DNA of 33,041 bases from Escherichia phage 500465-2: sequence record NC_049343.1, one strand, 5' to 3'. Made by a program: the position numbers and the translations under genes. Position 1 is the first letter of the stretch. Each line of letters starts with the position of its first letter. Below, in pieces: positions 20,995 to 33,041 of this stretch. The notes beneath the pieces are model-generated. The model saw nothing but the letters and a program-made list of their open reading frames with translations. It did no database searches and was not told the origin of the DNA.

Positions 20995-21151
20995 AGCTTC
21001 AGCCCCTTGTATCCGTTAAATGATTCGGCAACAATCATCACCCACCACGCGCGTAATCTCACCCCTGCGCCATTCTCCCGCCACGGCGACAACAAAAAGC
21101 AGTAACCCCCTCCGCACGCACATGCGACCATGCCACACAGGGAGGGAGCAG

Positions 21152-22261
21152 ATGACCGACACCACCATGCAATTGCTCAGTCAGGGCACAGACCCCGTGA
21201 AAATGCCGGATTTTGATATTCTCGCCGAGGGTAAAACGCTGTCCGGCGTGGCAGAACGCCTGATGAGCCTGTCACTGACCGACAACCGGGGATTTGAGGC
21301 GGACCAGCTCACCATCACGCTGGATGATGCCGATGGCCAGTTGCAGCTACCGCCACGGGGCGCGCGTCTGACGGTTCTCATTGGCTGGAAAGGGGAACCG
21401 CTGACAGAAAAAGGCACTTACATTGTTGATGAAATCGCTCACGAAGGACCGCCGGACAGGCTGACTGTTTCAGCCAGAAGCGCAGATTTTCGGGATGAAT
21501 TTAATGTTAAACGTGAGGCGTCCTGGCATGATGTGACCGTTGAACGTGTGGTATCCGCCATCGCTCATCGGTACGGCCTGAAACCGCAAATCAGCGAAAT
21601 GCTGATGGATATCGAAATCGACCACGCCGACCAGACTGAAGAAAGCGACATGTCCTTCCTTACGCGCATGGCGGAAATGCTGGGCGCAATCACCACGGTA
21701 AAAAGCGGTAATCTGTTATTCATCATGCCCGGCGGTGGCGTAAACGCACAGGGCCAGCCGTTGCCATCGTTCGCCATCACACGCAGCAGCGGCGATCGCC
21801 ATCAGTTCCGCATTGCTGACCGCGAGGCGTATACGGGGGTACGCGCTTACTGGCTTGATCTTAATTACGGGAAAAAGAAAAAAGTCAGCGTGAAACGCCG
21901 CAAACCGCCAAAACCCAAAAAGGAGAAAAGCAGCAGCCGTGAAGGTGATTATATGGAAGGCGCGGAAGGCAATGTGTTTGTGTTACGCAAGACTTATCAG
22001 AACGAGCAGGCAGCAAGACGCGCAGCGGCGGCAAAGTGGCAGCAGCTACAACGCGGAGCCGCATCGTTTTCCATCACGCTGGTGCGTGGACGTGCAGAAC
22101 TCTACCCCGAAATGCATGGCACGGTAACAGGATTTAAAAGCGAGATTGATAATCAGGACTGGATTATTGCGAAAGCCGAGCACACCATTGATAACAGCGG
22201 CTTTACCACACAGCTTGAGCTTGAGGCAAAAATCCCGGAATGGATAGCAGAAACAGAGTGA
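21152..22261 (+). CDS. Tail protein D (late control gene D-like)
   Basis: ORF 21020..22261; likely start ATG 21152 behind GGGAGGGAG; C-terminal part resembles gpD. Stands alone on + strand, divergent from FI. Confidence 0.8.
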   Translation: MTDTTMQLLSQGTDPVKMPDFDILAEGKTLSGVAERLMSLSLTDNRGFEADQLTITLDDADGQLQLPPRGARLTVLIGWKGEPLTEKGTYIVDEIAHEGPPDRLTVSARSADFRDEFNVKREASWHDVTVERVVSAIAHRYGLKPQISEMLMDIEIDHADQTEESDMSFLTRMAEMLGAITTVKSGNLLFIMPGGGVNAQGQPLPSFAITRSSGDRHQFRIADREAYTGVRAYWLDLNYGKKKKVSVKRRKPPKPKKEKSSSREGDYMEGAEGNVFVLRKTYQNEQAARRAAAAKWQQLQRGAASFSITLVRGRAELYPEMHGTVTGFKSEIDNQDWIIAKAEHTIDNSGFTTQLELEAKIPEWIAETE

Positions 22262-22381: not shown

Positions 22382-23404
22382 TTAATACGCATTTAATTTA
22401 AATTTGTATTTGCCTTCTATGTAATGGATAAATTCAATTATGCTTTTTTCTATCGCATCTAATATATGAATATATCCATCCCGATTTAAGGTCCTATCCA
22501 ACTCAAAGTGATGAACTATCCCATGTCTATATTGTATGATTTCAGAAATTCGATTCTCAAGAAAATCAACTGATTTTCCAATTCTTTTTTTCTTATAAAG
22601 AATCGCTCTCACATCTATATCCAGCCACTCTTTATATGCTTTGTTTAGGTGGGTTAAGTTTTGAAAAGTGTAATTTCTTGCAATAACACTTTCTATTGAA
22701 ATATTTCCTTTCTCTATCTCAAGCAGAATATCAAAATCAACTTTTTGCTTATACGATGTTCTTTTTGCTATTGCGAAAGGATCGTACTTTATAAGTATTT
22801 GAAAAGCTCTAGAGAAAAAGTATTCAAACATAGCAACCGCAAAAGGTACTAATCCATTATATATAACTCTACTGGGATCCATACATTGCATGTAATCAAA
22901 GTATTCGGATAAGCCGCCATCTTCCGGTAGGTTTAATTTAATAGAAGGTTCAGGTAAGGCATGTTTAACAGCGGAAATCTCATGATGGACATGATTAAAT
23001 ATTGAAGAAATGCCACGACTGATCGGACTACTAGAATCCTTCCATAGAGGAGCGTACCTATTTTTCCCATAATCACCTATAAGTGTTCCACCAAAAAGAC
23101 TCCTTGCGCCTTTTAGAACATCATTAAGCATTTTTACATCATGCCAACTAGCGCTATATAAATTACGCACATGCAATGCCCATTTATTACCAGATATGTG
23201 TAATTCGTCATTTGAAACAGGATATATATCAGCCGAAACTCCATCTGTAGATTTGAAGTCCGTATCATCAAACCAAGAGTAATTCAACGTTCCTTGGGGC
23301 CATTCCCACAAATGTTTACACCTTTTAAAACCTAAATTTTCAAGGTAATTTTTAAGTTCGTTTCTAGTTGCTTTTTTAGGGTACAGCGTTATATCTCTTC
23401 CCAT
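22382..23404 (-). CDS. Hypothetical protein, AT-rich cargo gene between D and ogr; C-terminal HEPN-like Rx4H motif (candidate abortive-infection/defence protein)
   Basis: 340-aa ORF in a visibly AT-rich block; no resemblance to P2 structural or regulatory proteins that I recognise; motif IIQYRHGIVHHFELDRT near C-terminus. Confidence 0.7.
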   Translation of the reverse strand: MGRDITLYPKKATRNELKNYLENLGFKRCKHLWEWPQGTLNYSWFDDTDFKSTDGVSADIYPVSNDELHISGNKWALHVRNLYSASWHDVKMLNDVLKGARSLFGGTLIGDYGKNRYAPLWKDSSSPISRGISSIFNHVHHEISAVKHALPEPSIKLNLPEDGGLSEYFDYMQCMDPSRVIYNGLVPFAVAMFEYFFSRAFQILIKYDPFAIAKRTSYKQKVDFDILLEIEKGNISIESVIARNYTFQNLTHLNKAYKEWLDIDVRAILYKKKRIGKSVDFLENRISEIIQYRHGIVHHFELDRTLNRDGYIHILDAIEKSIIEFIHYIEGKYKFKLNAY

Positions 23405-23595: not shown

Positions 23596-23856
23596 ATGTT
23601 CCGTTGTCCGCTTTGTGGCGCATCTGCCCGTATCCGCACAAGTCGTCCGGAAAATGATTCAAACACCGTGCGGCAAAAGTATTACCAGTGTAACAATCTG
23701 GAATGCGGCGTATGCTTCTCAACACTGGAAGCTTTCCATAAATTCACATCGAAACACGCCTCCGGCGTTCACTCTTCAGAAGGTATCCCGTGGCATGAGC
23801 TACCAGCTTCACACAGGGGAAACAATCAGATGAGTTTGCCTTTACCTCAGAATTAA
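23596..23856 (+). CDS. ogr: Ogr/Delta-family zinc-finger late transcription activator
   Basis: MFRCPLCGASARIRTSR...YYQCNNLECGVCFSTLEAF: CxxC...CxxxxC zinc-finger pattern as in P2 Ogr (MFHCPLCQHAAHARTSR...YHQCQNVNCSATF as recalled). Confidence 0.88.
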   Translation: MFRCPLCGASARIRTSRPENDSNTVRQKYYQCNNLECGVCFSTLEAFHKFTSKHASGVHSSEGIPWHELPASHRGNNQMSLPLPQN

Positions 23857-23900: not shown

Positions 23901-24252
23901 GGGTGCCTTTCGGCTGATGGTCGGAGGGAATACCCGAAGGCCAGATGTGGAAAGGCCCCGGAAAACACTTTTGTTTAACCGAGGCCCTAACCGTCTACCC
24001 TAAGCAAGTGAAAGGTTAGCGCCTCTCCGGAAAAGGAGCAAGTGCTATGTCGCAAAAATCGCTTACAGCCATCACGTTCTGCGTGACGGTAATCCTCATC
24101 ATCTGGATGTTGCACGGTTCGCTGTGCGAAATACGGATGAGTTTCTGGGGAGCGGAGTTTGCGGCGTTCTTACAGTGTAAGCAGTAAGGAAACCGCGACG
24201 GGGGAGTAATCCCCCGTCAATCGGTTGCCAGGGTAAGGTCGATAAGGCACCC
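23901..24252 (+). promoter_or_regulatory. hok mRNA-like regulatory envelope: 5' element gggtgcctt (23901-23909) exactly complementary to 3' element aaggcaccc (24244-24252); 3' hairpin 24195-24218
   Basis: Long-range 9-nt perfect complement flanking the toxin ORF, as in the tac/fbi fold-back pairing of hok mRNAs. The antisense sok-like RNA and its promoter were not located. Confidence 0.5.
24047..24187 (+). CDS. hok: Hok/Gef-family type I toxin (46 aa, below the ORF-track cutoff)
   Basis: MSQKSLTAITFCVTVILIIWMLHGSLCEIRMSFWGAEFAAFLQCKQ: N-terminal TM helix, conserved SLCEIR and E.AAF motifs as in HokA-E; RBS AAAGGAG upstream. Confidence 0.8.
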   Translation: MSQKSLTAITFCVTVILIIWMLHGSLCEIRMSFWGAEFAAFLQCKQ

Positions 24253-24385
24253 TATCTCACGGCTCTAAATGCAAAAATTCCATGAAACTGTGGGATTTTT
24301 GCATCACTACTGATACAGATCTGCCCTTCTATATGTCTCACTCTATACCAGCTAATCAATTGACACTTATCAATAAAAAAAAATC

Positions 24386-24394
24386 TGATAAAAT
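24386..24394 (+). promoter_or_regulatory. Extended -10 promoter element (TGaTAAAAT) upstream of the zinc-ribbon gene; TTGACA hexamer at 24360-24365 is too far for canonical spacing
   Basis: Seen in sequence; about 55 bp upstream of ATG 24449. Confidence 0.35.
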
Positions 24395-24448
24395 CAAAAT
24401 GTTTTGTAACAAATATCAACTCGTATTGATCCAAAGGAGGCGGATTAC

Positions 24449-24781
24449 ATGGCATTAATCAAATGTCCTGAATGCCAGAAAGAGGTGAGCGATTCAGCAT
24501 TGTATTGCCCTGCTTGCGGTAAACAAATAAAAAAACTTAAGCGTTCATTTTTTGGAAAGCTCATTAAGTGGATATTTATATTATTTAATATTTTTATGAT
24601 CTATACGCTTTTAGTTGGACTGGGAGGCACTAGTGAAATAATAAATAATGCTACATCCGATGCCGAAAAAGCCGGTGCAGTTATTGGTACAGGCTTAGGT
24701 TTAATTACCATTGGAAGTTTATGGGTTATTGGCGATATCATTATCGGAATTTTAGTATTTCTTACTAAACCAAAAGGATAA
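24449..24781 (+). CDS. Zinc-ribbon membrane protein (N-terminal CPEC...CPAC ribbon, two predicted TM helices)
   Basis: 110-aa ORF with strong RBS (AAAGGAGG); MALIKCPECQKEVSDSALYCPACGKQ followed by hydrophobic helices; AT-rich. Confidence 0.7.
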   Translation: MALIKCPECQKEVSDSALYCPACGKQIKKLKRSFFGKLIKWIFILFNIFMIYTLLVGLGGTSEIINNATSDAEKAGAVIGTGLGLITIGSLWVIGDIIIGILVFLTKPKG

Positions 24782-24785
24782 CAAA

Positions 24786-25679
24786 ATGAAAAATATAATT
24801 TTTTCTATAGGTGCATCATTTATATCAATTAGTGTACTGCCTGTTCACGCAGCAACTGAACATAATAACTTCAATGCAGTACTCCAGTGCCGAGCAATAG
24901 AAAATAATAAAGACAGACTTTCTTGTTACGATAAGTCAATACAACCGACTCGAACGAAAGTTGCTGAAAAATTCGAAAGCAGAGATCAATGCCCTGATGA
25001 GAAAGATGATGACAGACGTTTATCTTGTTATGATCGTTTTTTTTCTCCAACATTTACTCCATCTGTAAACTCAAAATCTAAAACGGAAAAGCCAGTAACA
25101 ACAGAGGCTCAGCAACCAAATCTTTCTGAGATATCTAAATGCCGAGCAGAAAATGATAAAGAAGCCAGACTAAACTGCTACGATAAACTATTCCCACAGG
25201 ATAAAGCTGTTCAAGCTGAATCAAAATTAGAGAAAGCCACAGATGTAGGAAAATGGCACACATCCATTACTACATCGCCAATTGATGATTCGAAAAATGT
25301 AATTTTATCGTTAGAAAGTGATGATTATATCAGAACTCCATTTGGAGAAGCGGTTACTCCCACTCTGTTTATAGCTTGCCGAGAAAAGAAAACCGAAGTA
25401 TTTCTTAGTTGGGATGTATATTTAGGCCTTGAACAAACCAGCATGCTTTATCGTCTTGATAAACAGAAAGCAGTTGAGCGAAACTGGCTAGTATCTACAG
25501 ATACAAAGGCTGTTTTTTATAAAGGTAATGACATTGATTTCATCCGAAAACTAGCCAACTCAAACAAAATGTATACAAAAATAACTCCTTATAATGAGAG
25601 CCCTGTAAGTGCAACTTTCAATTTAAACGGCCTGTCAAACGCGCTAAAACCACTTCAAGCTGCTTGTAACTGGAAATAG
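24786..25679 (+). CDS. Secreted protein of unknown function with three Cys-containing repeats (C...RLSCYD) and a C-terminal domain with a Cys pair
   Basis: 297-aa ORF 4 bp after the zinc-ribbon gene; signal peptide MKNIIFSIGASFISISVLPVHAA; repeats QCRAIENNKDRLSCYDK / QCPDEKDDDRRLSCYDRF / KCRAENDKEARLNCYDKL. Confidence 0.7.
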   Translation: MKNIIFSIGASFISISVLPVHAATEHNNFNAVLQCRAIENNKDRLSCYDKSIQPTRTKVAEKFESRDQCPDEKDDDRRLSCYDRFFSPTFTPSVNSKSKTEKPVTTEAQQPNLSEISKCRAENDKEARLNCYDKLFPQDKAVQAESKLEKATDVGKWHTSITTSPIDDSKNVILSLESDDYIRTPFGEAVTPTLFIACREKKTEVFLSWDVYLGLEQTSMLYRLDKQKAVERNWLVSTDTKAVFYKGNDIDFIRKLANSNKMYTKITPYNESPVSATFNLNGLSNALKPLQAACNWK

Positions 25680-25708
25680 CATAAATCATGTGGCTTAGCC
25701 ACAATCCA

Positions 25709-25746
25709 GATAACACAAAGCCCGTGAAAACGGGCTTTGTGTTATC
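25709..25746 (+). terminator. Perfect 16-bp stem hairpin (gataacacaaagcccg-tgaaaa-cgggctttgtgttatc) after the cassette; no T-run
   Basis: Seen in sequence; a second small palindrome tgtggc-tta-gccaca lies at 25689-25703. Confidence 0.4.
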
Positions 25747-25945
25747 TGTAACTCGAAAATGTGGTCACTACGTGGACACGTGCTGATATAAATCCTTTTA
25801 TATCAATAAATTAAATCATCATTTTTTTCATCAACAAGGATTTTCACGTTTGTGTTACCTGTATGAGACGAGAGTTAACCGGACAAGTGTGCCATAATCT
25901 CGCGGCCAGGCATACTTGCGAAGATTTCAGGTATAAGGATACGTA

Positions 25946-28119
<2,174 letters not shown>

Positions 28120-31801: not shown

Positions 31802-33041
<1,240 letters not shown>

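Follow-up and report, generated by a model that had tools for sequence, protein, structure and literature searches.

Why does a compact, AT-rich pair of genes stand at the junction between a P2-like prophage and the E. coli chromosome, to which of the two does it belong, and what might it do there? The question is raised by the DNA of Escherichia phage 500465-2 (NC_049343.1), of which a stretch of 33,041 nt was analyzed (hereafter the window, meaning this whole stretch); in it the two genes, here called gene 1 and gene 2, are found as one cassette between a hok/mok-type toxin gene and flk. At the level of sequence, the region is identified here as a phage moron, that is, a putatively autonomous cargo transcription unit. 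Judging from profile and neighborhood comparisons, it encodes a phage-borne variant of the VasI family that has a dedicated membrane partner. The feature is real and well delimited, and in kind it is prophage cargo, with nothing as yet that falls outside known kinds.

The host element is a P88-like prophage (genus Xuanwuvirus, Peduoviridae; P2-like) inserted at the 5′ end of pdxB, upstream of flk. The window covers its right-hand part, which comprises tail genes, gpD, a 340-aa open reading frame (ORF), ogr, hok/mok and the cassette, followed by flk, yfcJ and fabB. The cassette forms a discrete module of 1.49 kb, and the AT-rich block reported in a preliminary description of this DNA is evident in the base composition of the window, with a GC content of 0.34-0.40 over positions 24501-26000 compared with 0.51-0.59 on either side. 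On the left, the homology to the cassette-free phages P88 and Chuche ends at 24258-24260; on the right, the homology to Chuche restarts at 25752 and extends to 25844, beside the integrase gene. A module of atypical GC content is therefore present or absent between conserved genes of collinear phages, and the classical definition of a moron fits because a conserved promoter layout of its own and a 3′ hairpin occur together with the atypical composition.

The preliminary description had proposed horizontally acquired cargo, either a prophage moron or a separate islet. Horizontal acquisition is borne out by the position of the cassette inside the attP-bounded genomes of sequenced P88-like phages, and the slot, the phage genomes and 93 bp of phage DNA decide for the moron and against the islet. 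The whole cassette is present at 93-97% DNA identity in Escherichia phage PhiR44_2, Citrobacter phage Shae_phiSM and Xuanwuvirus P88_4B11. In the virion-numbered genome of P88_4B11 (NC_049391) the pair is gp36/gp37 and stands between hok and the integrase, which places the cassette inside the phage genome, adjoining attP. The reading as a separate chromosomal islet was rejected because the genomes of sequenced phages contain the module, and 93 bp of conserved DNA of the phage lie between it and the att core. P88 and Chuche carry ogr and hok without the cassette; the slot is occupied by Com and a DNA methyltransferase in Chuche and by an 80-aa ORF in P88, and it is empty in some sister phages. 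The att core is common to the 5′ end of K-12 pdxB and the attP region of Chuche, and because it coincides with the first pdxB codons, the prophage is inserted into the 5′ end of that gene, with attR retaining the pdxB promoter side and about 7 codons. Direct att repeats were also looked for inside the window, with chance matches only, since attL lies beyond it.

The distribution of the cassette is that of an accessory element and not of a conserved chromosomal housekeeping operon. It was detected (at least 80% of its length) in 237 of 5426 complete E. coli genomes, while the adjoining hok end was detected in 764, and in all four of the E. coli genomes inspected it was located at the flk locus after a P2-like prophage. 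K-12 has no such genes before flk, as the preliminary description had stated; the pdxB-flk spacer of MG1655 is 98 nt long. The two ORFs are exactly those first described, with a 4-nt spacer and ribosome-binding sites AGGAGG / AAGGA. The ratios of nonsynonymous to synonymous substitution (dN/dS) are 0.03-0.43 for gene 1 and 0.07-0.35 for gene 2, and because of these values (0.03-0.43 overall) both are considered to be real genes. Sequence comparisons thus describe two genes that are tightly linked, co-inherited, translationally coupled and both under purifying selection.

The signal peptide, the three C...RLSCYD repeats and the C-terminal Cys pair first noticed in the gene 2 product are all present. 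An N-terminal signal-like helix ends in VHA, the C-x11-C-Y-D motifs occupy residues 35-49, 69-83 and 119-133, and the Cys pair is 198/294; no lipobox, outer-membrane anchor or secretion signal other than Sec was found in the protein. The product is predicted to be a Sec-exported, disulfide-rich periplasmic protein in which three Cys-stapled helical hairpins are followed by a beta-sandwich. Its membership of the VasI/TagO family, which had been missed before, is indicated by a score of 89.6 bits against the Pfam VasI model (PF11319), which passes the gathering score of 26.5; the model matches in three stretches because the N-terminal Cys motif is repeated. Against NCBIfam TIGR03360 the score is 75.9 bits and misses the equivalog cutoff of 124.2, and against Pfam IalB (PF06776) it is 20.6 bits compared with a gathering threshold of 22.1. 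By these comparisons, the gene 2 clade is separate from the VasI proteins of type VI secretion systems (T6SSs). The homologues have lengths of approximately 297, 250 and 210 aa, which correspond to three, two and one Cys motif, respectively. Gene 2 is named "TagO" by PGAP and falls into PHROG family phrog_1848. A sequence search of the PDB returned nothing meaningful, and a BFVD search returned uncharacterized phage proteins only.

Gene 1 contains the CPEC...CPAC zinc ribbon (residues 6-9 and 20-23; Pfam Zn_Ribbon_1, 31.2 bits) and the two transmembrane helices that had been claimed for it, the hydrophobic segments being at about residues 33-57 and 76-104. From the hydropathy and the positive charges before the first helix, the zinc ribbon and the C-terminus are predicted to be cytoplasmic and the loop of about 22 residues periplasmic. 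Envelope targeting of both products, suggested earlier, is supported by these helices and by the signal peptide of gene 2. The protein is a member of phrog_6586 (E 7e-43), and its family is 60-75% identical across the Enterobacterales, with one member from Haemophilus; in the family alignment W92, G95, G100, T106, P108 and K109 are invariant at the end of the second helix. A PDB sequence search with gene 1 gave nothing meaningful.

The membrane module of gene 1 is DrpB-like, a second feature that had escaped the first reading. The whole two-helix module matches the NCBIfam DrpB model (NF038392) with 22.1 bits and E 1.4e-4, missing the cutoff of 50, and several members of the gene 1 family carry precomputed matches to Pfam DrpB (PF28000). 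In an hhalign comparison of the gene 1 family with E. coli DrpB (E 9e-4, probability 23%), the two are colinear over 78 columns, and the family-invariant T106-(R/K)-P-K aligns with T89-R-P of DrpB. An exhaustive profile search showed the two-helix module to be widespread, with 336 representatives at E <= 1e-10, and its members carry one zinc ribbon, several or none, or have extensions of other kinds. DrpB is no more than a marginal relative in this family, with phmmer E values of 1e-6 to 1e-3 against the top representatives within a set of 144 sequences. The module is called DrpB-like, and not DrpB, because the two-helix family is broad and DrpB is marginal in it; the resemblance to DrpB is weak.

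The association of the two genes extends well beyond this prophage. Among 103 loci from genomes, metagenomes and viral contigs, with ORF overlaps counted as linked, a gene 1 homologue was found directly upstream of the VasI gene, on the same strand and usually 4 nt off, for about 61 of 72 distinct VasI ORFs (~85%); the pair thus co-occurs elsewhere, as the preliminary description had proposed to check. The linked pair recurs in E. coli, Klebsiella, Dickeya, Salmonella and Brenneria, and the att sites of its prophages are varied (flk/pdxB in E. coli, yccJ-wrbA and cpxP-fieF in Klebsiella, pflB in Dickeya, copA in others). The further possibility that it is always prophage-associated held in part: nearly all pairs are located in the gpD-ogr-attR slot of P2-like prophages of Enterobacterales, but non-prophage copies exist, and the pair or VasI persists outside prophages in Enterobacter mori, Izhakiella and Phytobacter. 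The E. mori pair lies outside any detectable prophage, between ybbJ and copA (locus L024, 4983-8885), is nearly identical to copies on P2-like viral contigs, and adjoins a 590-aa GmrSD_N and Schlafen/AlbA_2 protein. This copy looks like a cargo-retaining prophage remnant or a small defense islet.

The 250-aa VasI of E. coli and Salmonella is found without gene 1 and is convergent to the phage end. In E. coli it adjoins a 98-aa protein that belongs to another family and has the same architecture, a zinc ribbon joined to a TM2 domain (PF05154). Because zinc-ribbon-TM2 proteins adjoin VasI, a second, unrelated family shares both the architecture and the company of gene 1. In Izhakiella, a gene 1 pseudogene stands on one side of VasI and a zinc-ribbon-TM2 gene on the other. 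A natural fusion of a zinc ribbon, one transmembrane helix and VasI occurs in one metagenomic P2-like prophage, in the same slot and next to copA. As separate observations, 98-aa zinc-ribbon-TM2 proteins were located beside VasI genes that have no DrpB-like partner at L012 (7830-8126) and L029 (8713-9009), and the fusion protein (P0052; L113, 6001-6732) is to be explained either by in-frame deletion or as a true fusion.

A promoter scan recovered the extended -10 element TGaTAAAAT, noted in the preliminary description, as the pair TTATCA-16 nt-TAAAAT with TG in front of the second hexamer. Promoter-like sites as such are no more frequent in the region than expected by chance (3 compared with 5.6). 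The upstream regions of loci of the E. coli, Klebsiella, Dickeya, Brenneria and Salmonella types and of the non-prophage E. mori copy were aligned, and the predicted promoter is kept across genera upstream of gene 1 as cTTGTCAAT, a spacer and TC(C/T)GATAAAAT; in each aligned lineage it is preceded by the GC-rich terminator hairpin of the upstream gene. TTGACA at 24360-24365 was considered as the -35 element and rejected, since a spacing of 23 nt exceeds what is acceptable and TTATCA/TTGTCA at 24367-24372 is favored by the alignment across genera. Directly downstream, the block AATGTTTTGTAACAAAT, which contains the palindrome TTTGTaACAAA, is kept in most lineages (E. coli, Klebsiella, E. mori and locus L054). 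The palindrome looks operator-like from its sequence, and it had no match to any known regulator site.

Each end of the module carries a foldable element. The inverted repeat at the 5′ edge exists as first described, but not at the 10-bp size given then: its arms (24269-24282 / 24291-24304) are 14 nt long and 93% complementary (dG -18.1, z -6.9). It could serve as an insulator or terminator after hok. The 3′ hairpin was likewise correctly described as having a perfect stem, of 19 bp and not 16 (25707-25725 / 25730-25748, loop 4, dG -33.9, z -10.2), and compared with the P88_4B11 copy it shows three compensatory pair changes that leave the stem still perfect. It was not scored as a canonical terminator because no U-tract follows the stem. 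No Rfam family matched either element. The evidence for transcription of its own consists of a promoter-like element that is conserved across genera and a 3′ hairpin that is conserved by compensation.

VasI domains are also found by tblastn in unrelated temperate phages, including those of Brucella, Pasteurella and Labrenzia. In Brucella phage BiPBO1 (locus L110, 1629-3046) the VasI/TagO gene starts 9 nt after a gene for a CI-type repressor (HTH_3 + Peptidase_S24), which suggests, by analogy, that VasI cargo is expressed in the lysogen in this phage of an alphaproteobacterium. The arrangement of repressor and VasI recalls lambda cI-rexAB. Elsewhere, VasI follows a helix-turn-helix repressor and a tail-anchored membrane protein and adjoins an integrase (viral contig L102), lies in an Arc/Bro-N (immI-like) region in a Klebsiella phage, and is downstream of replication genes in a lambdoid E. 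coli phage. These placements are typical for lysogen-expressed accessory genes. IalB/VasI-fold proteins, which are uncharacterized, occur in the strictly lytic T4-like phages RB16, KP15 and Aeromonas phage 65.2 as well.

What, then, may the pair do? The explanation ranked first, by analogy and with a tentative standing, is a lysogen-expressed envelope function, either superinfection exclusion or defense. It is ranked first because of the placement of the cassette, its neighbors, the repeated pairing of VasI with zinc-ribbon membrane proteins and the precedent of the SDIC4 system of Serratia. Defense-like genes are found near the cassette in the phage (hok/sok, a RES-domain gene, a HEPN-like ORF) and beside the E. 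mori copy (the GmrSD_N/Schlafen gene). The operon would be transcribed in the lysogen from its own sigma-70 promoter, and both products would act together at the interface of the inner membrane and the periplasm, changing the envelope so as to protect the lysogen. The likeliest effect would be an entry block against superinfecting phages or other injection devices. The part of gene 1 would be to anchor the VasI-like protein of the periplasm, to position it or to signal for it, and in doing so it may contact the divisome or the Rcs system in the manner of DrpB.

Several points weigh against this explanation. PADLOC 2.0 gave no matches, and phrog_6586 and phrog_1848 are both function-unassigned. 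Such genetic data as exist for a true VasI indicate a T6SS function (PMC3166118). Two published surveys of defense hotspots in P2-like phages, which name gpA-gpQ, int-att, int-gpA and a tail-gene site, name neither the ogr-attP slot nor these genes. In about 15% of the distinct homologues VasI occurs without gene 1, and VasI carries a frameshift in a few E. coli lineages in which gene 1 is intact. The 3′ hairpin has no U-tract, and the activity of the predicted promoter in the lysogen is putative.

The cassette, at 1.5 kb and with a predicted promoter of its own, is a compact candidate for a new envelope-level mechanism of exclusion or defense and a possible handle on VasI-fold proteins. The pair also marks an attP-proximal cargo slot on the ogr side that is possibly new with respect to the two P2 defense-hotspot surveys. 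A wider and quite unlikely extension is that periplasmic VasI-fold proteins are general envelope guards against phage tails, tailocins and T6SS spikes. The phage VasI, held or regulated by gene 1, would then intercept the spike or tube or trigger RcsC-dependent envelope remodeling, and the VasI/TagO of T6SSs would be a domesticated counterpart that handles the system's own spike as it crosses the periplasm. If this were true, it would represent a new kind of superinfection exclusion and a first mechanistic handle on VasI/TagO.

Among the alternatives to exclusion or defense, a modulator of T6SSs is unlikely, although it has the family assignment on its side. The VasI-like protein and its membrane partner would plug into or interfere with the T6SS of the host, so that the lysogen kills more competitors, the system is silenced, or an incoming T6SS attack is warded off. 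Gene 2 belongs genuinely to PF11319, and its alignment with the VasI of EDL933 spans the entire protein, including C..RLxCYD and C-x-W. VasI of V. cholerae (VCA0118) is exported; without it amoebae and E. coli are not killed to the full extent, but Hcp/VgrG secretion does not require it (PMC3166118), and the copy of gene 2 in phiSM has been listed, without experiments, as putative T6SS/virulence cargo (PMC6456863). However, gene 2 falls short of the TIGR03360 cutoff, as do all of the phage-type homologues tested (44-78 bits; P0010, P0048 and P0068), and none of the approximately 110 loci examined places a homologue in a T6SS cluster. In addition, true VasI has no zinc-ribbon partner, the carrier phages were grown on laboratory strains such as E. 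coli C, and the VasI cargo of the Brucella, Pasteurella and Labrenzia phages is located in lysogeny modules.

An envelope-stress or divisome modulator likewise appears unlikely. Here gene 1 would be a DrpB-like septal protein and/or a trigger of Rcs (capsule) or Psp, with the VasI-like protein as its co-factor or sensor, and the lysogen would gain capsule, biofilm or stress phenotypes, which could themselves be a route to phage resistance. The topology of gene 1 matches that of DrpB, and the profile matches cover the whole module. T106-(R/K)-P-K aligns over T89-R-P, and the T89A change is reported to abolish Rcs activation by DrpB, which in multicopy turns on both Rcs and Psp (PMC11709261). 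The likeness to DrpB, weak but specific, extends to the residue on which Rcs activation depends, and the hypothesis is open to study with Rcs reporters. Against this, the module is below every curated threshold (22.1 compared with 50 bits, and an hhalign probability of 23%), the two-helix family is very broad with DrpB at its margin, the effects of DrpB are seen only in multicopy, and the role of VasI is left unexplained.

It is improbable that the pair is an accessory of the lytic cycle that does not act in the lysogen but aids infection or release of the phage itself, for example by readying the envelope for penetration by the tail, for the entry of DNA or for lysis. The cassette is downstream of the late activator gene ogr and in the same orientation, and proteins with the IalB/VasI fold are found in the strictly lytic phages named above. 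However, a terminator hairpin divides the cassette from the upstream gene, a sigma-70 promoter of its own is predicted, the close relatives P88 and Chuche are viable without it, copies persist outside prophages in E. mori, Izhakiella and Phytobacter, and the VasI gene of BiPBO1 directly follows the CI repressor gene. A host-interaction or virulence factor, in which an exported IalB-like protein helps the bacterium to adhere to eukaryotic cells or to invade them, a role proposed for IalB of Bartonella and for VCA0118 (a possible adhesin or effector in PMC3166118, with the phiSM gene classed as "virulence" cargo in PMC6456863), is highly improbable, since gene 2 has no secretion signal past Sec, no outer-membrane anchor and no lipobox, is coupled to an inner-membrane partner, scores below the Pfam IalB gathering threshold, and is carried by phages of plant-pathogen and environmental Enterobacterales besides those of gut strains.

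Table 1. Positions of the cargo module, its parts and the neighboring features in the window
Feature	Position	Strand	Basis or remark
Whole cargo module (moron): promoter, two genes, 3′ hairpin	24261..25751	+	Homology edges and GC drop
Inverted repeat at module 5′ edge, 14-nt arms, 8-nt loop	24269..24304	+	
Predicted sigma-70-type promoter with extended -10, TTATCA-16 nt-TGaTAAAAT	24367..24394	+	Promoter scan
Palindrome TTTGTaACAAA, directly downstream of -10	24403..24413	+	Operator-like or 5′ untranslated region element
Gene 1: 110-aa predicted inner-membrane protein, zinc ribbon and two-helix module ending T-(R/K)-P-K	24449..24781	+	
Gene 2: 297-aa predicted exported protein, signal peptide, three C-x11-C-Y-D hairpins, VasI/IalB-fold domain with Cys pair	24786..25679	+	
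Perfect 19-bp hairpin at module 3′ end, no U-tract	25707..25748	+	
Conserved phage right arm ending in att core	25752..25848	+	25752-25844 matches Chuche beside integrase
att core, ~20 bp, TTTTCATCAACAAGGATTTT	~25826-25848		First pdxB codons
gpD	21020-22261		
ogr	23596-23856		
hok/mok-type toxin gene, Hok/MokW-like 46-aa ORF	24047-24187		phrog_251
GC-rich hairpin of hok/sok locus	24197-24218		

The surroundings of the module are summarized in Table 1 together with its parts. The hok/sok-type toxin-antitoxin locus of the prophage spans 23901-24228, and a sok-like RNA match at 23901-24060 is just under the Rfam threshold (51.9 bits compared with 59). In other E. coli prophages and in P88_4B11, a RES-domain gene is additionally present upstream of the pair. 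This insertion, which encodes an NAD+ phosphorylase-type toxin (L002/L003/L005), sits between hok and the cassette, and an 11-bp sequence (window 24250-24260) is found on both sides of it. The 340-aa ORF, at 22382-23404 on the - strand between gpD and ogr, lies in a further AT-rich block, with a GC content of 0.32-0.35. Its match to HEPN_RiboL-PSP is sub-threshold (22.5 bits compared with 28.4), PADLOC and PHROG gave no match for it, and it is a possible defense gene. P88_4B11 and PhiR44_2 have nothing in the gpD-ogr interval, and a different E. coli prophage has an alpha/beta hydrolase there; because its contents differ or are absent among relatives, it is regarded as a second variable cargo slot. 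On the chromosomal side, a transposase gene of IS621 (IS110 family) lies between mnmC and yfcL at 31956-32936 (- strand), according to the annotation of the 100%-identical record of strain 503025.

Classical exclusion morons that are expressed in the lysogen include lambda rexAB, P22 sieA, HK97 gp15 and T5 llp. The cassette resembles them by context, in that it is accessory and AT-rich, has a predicted transcription of its own, is located near lysogeny and att functions, and encodes envelope proteins. It differs from them in having no sequence relationship to any, as judged from the absence of annotated PHROG and PADLOC matches.

The SDIC4 system of Serratia provides the precedent for a periplasmic protein of this kind. 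The periplasmic SDIC4B, for which a VasI-like fold is reported, alone protects 10-200-fold against phages (bioRxiv 10.1101/2024.01.28.577318). Like the cassette, SDIC4 is a two-gene operon, and its key component is a small Sec-exported periplasmic protein; it is found on mobile or defense-type DNA. The sequences of SDIC4A, SDIC4B and SDIC4E were taken from the plasmid sequences in the preprint supplement. The SDIC4B family model matches the same two PDB structures as gene 2, namely IalB and a Vibrio flagellar ring component, which is a weak fold signal. Gene 2 and SDIC4B gave a BLASTP E value of 56, and hhalign against an SDIC4B alignment gave a probability of 1.1%. SDIC4B belongs to PF27224, a different Pfam family from that of gene 2, SDIC4A is periplasmic and unrelated to gene 1, and the match between the transmembrane segments of gene 1 and SDIC4E is insignificant. 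SDIC4 is found with BrxR in chromosomal islands, whereas the neighbors of the cassette are ogr, hok and attR, with no WYL/BrxR gene. Membership of SDIC4 was rejected at the sequence level, as neither window protein shows BLAST or profile similarity to it, while the weak shared fold signal remains.

IalB of Bartonella (PDB 3dtd; PF06776) differs from gene 2 in that it has neither Cys-hairpin repeats nor a membrane partner; a biochemical function for IalB was not found in the IalB literature. DrpB (YedR), a small divisome protein of E. coli, is of the same size as the membrane part of gene 1 and shares with it the two-helix topology with both termini inside, a periplasmic loop of about 20 residues (PMC7648144) and the T-R-P motif. 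It differs in having no zinc ribbon, while gene 1 is phage-borne, coupled to an exported partner and below the curated cutoffs.

The closest relatives of gene 2 are the VasI/TagO proteins of T6SSs (VCA0118 and the VasI of EDL933 T6SS-2; PF11319, TIGR03360), with which it shares the signal peptide, the C-x11-C 'RLxCYD' motif, the beta-sandwich and the terminal Cys-x-Trp. Gene 2 aligns with EDL933 VasI from end to end at 26% identity (E 5e-11), and it is predicted to be exported, as is VCA0118. A review of 2026 lists the function of TagO/VasI as unknown (PMC13584744), and the annotation of phage-borne VasI/TagO cargo bears on inventories of both virulence factors and T6SSs. Gene 2 was rejected as a bona fide T6SS component, since it misses the equivalog cutoff and never occurs in a T6SS cluster in the loci examined; there are no T6SS genes in the window. 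EDL933 VasI scores 257.4 bits on TIGR03360, compared with the 75.9 bits of gene 2, and the Cys motif is triplicated in the phage protein. Finally, the EDL933 gene is embedded in the order tssH-vasI-tssA-tssM and has no zinc-ribbon partner, whereas gene 2 has one of its own.

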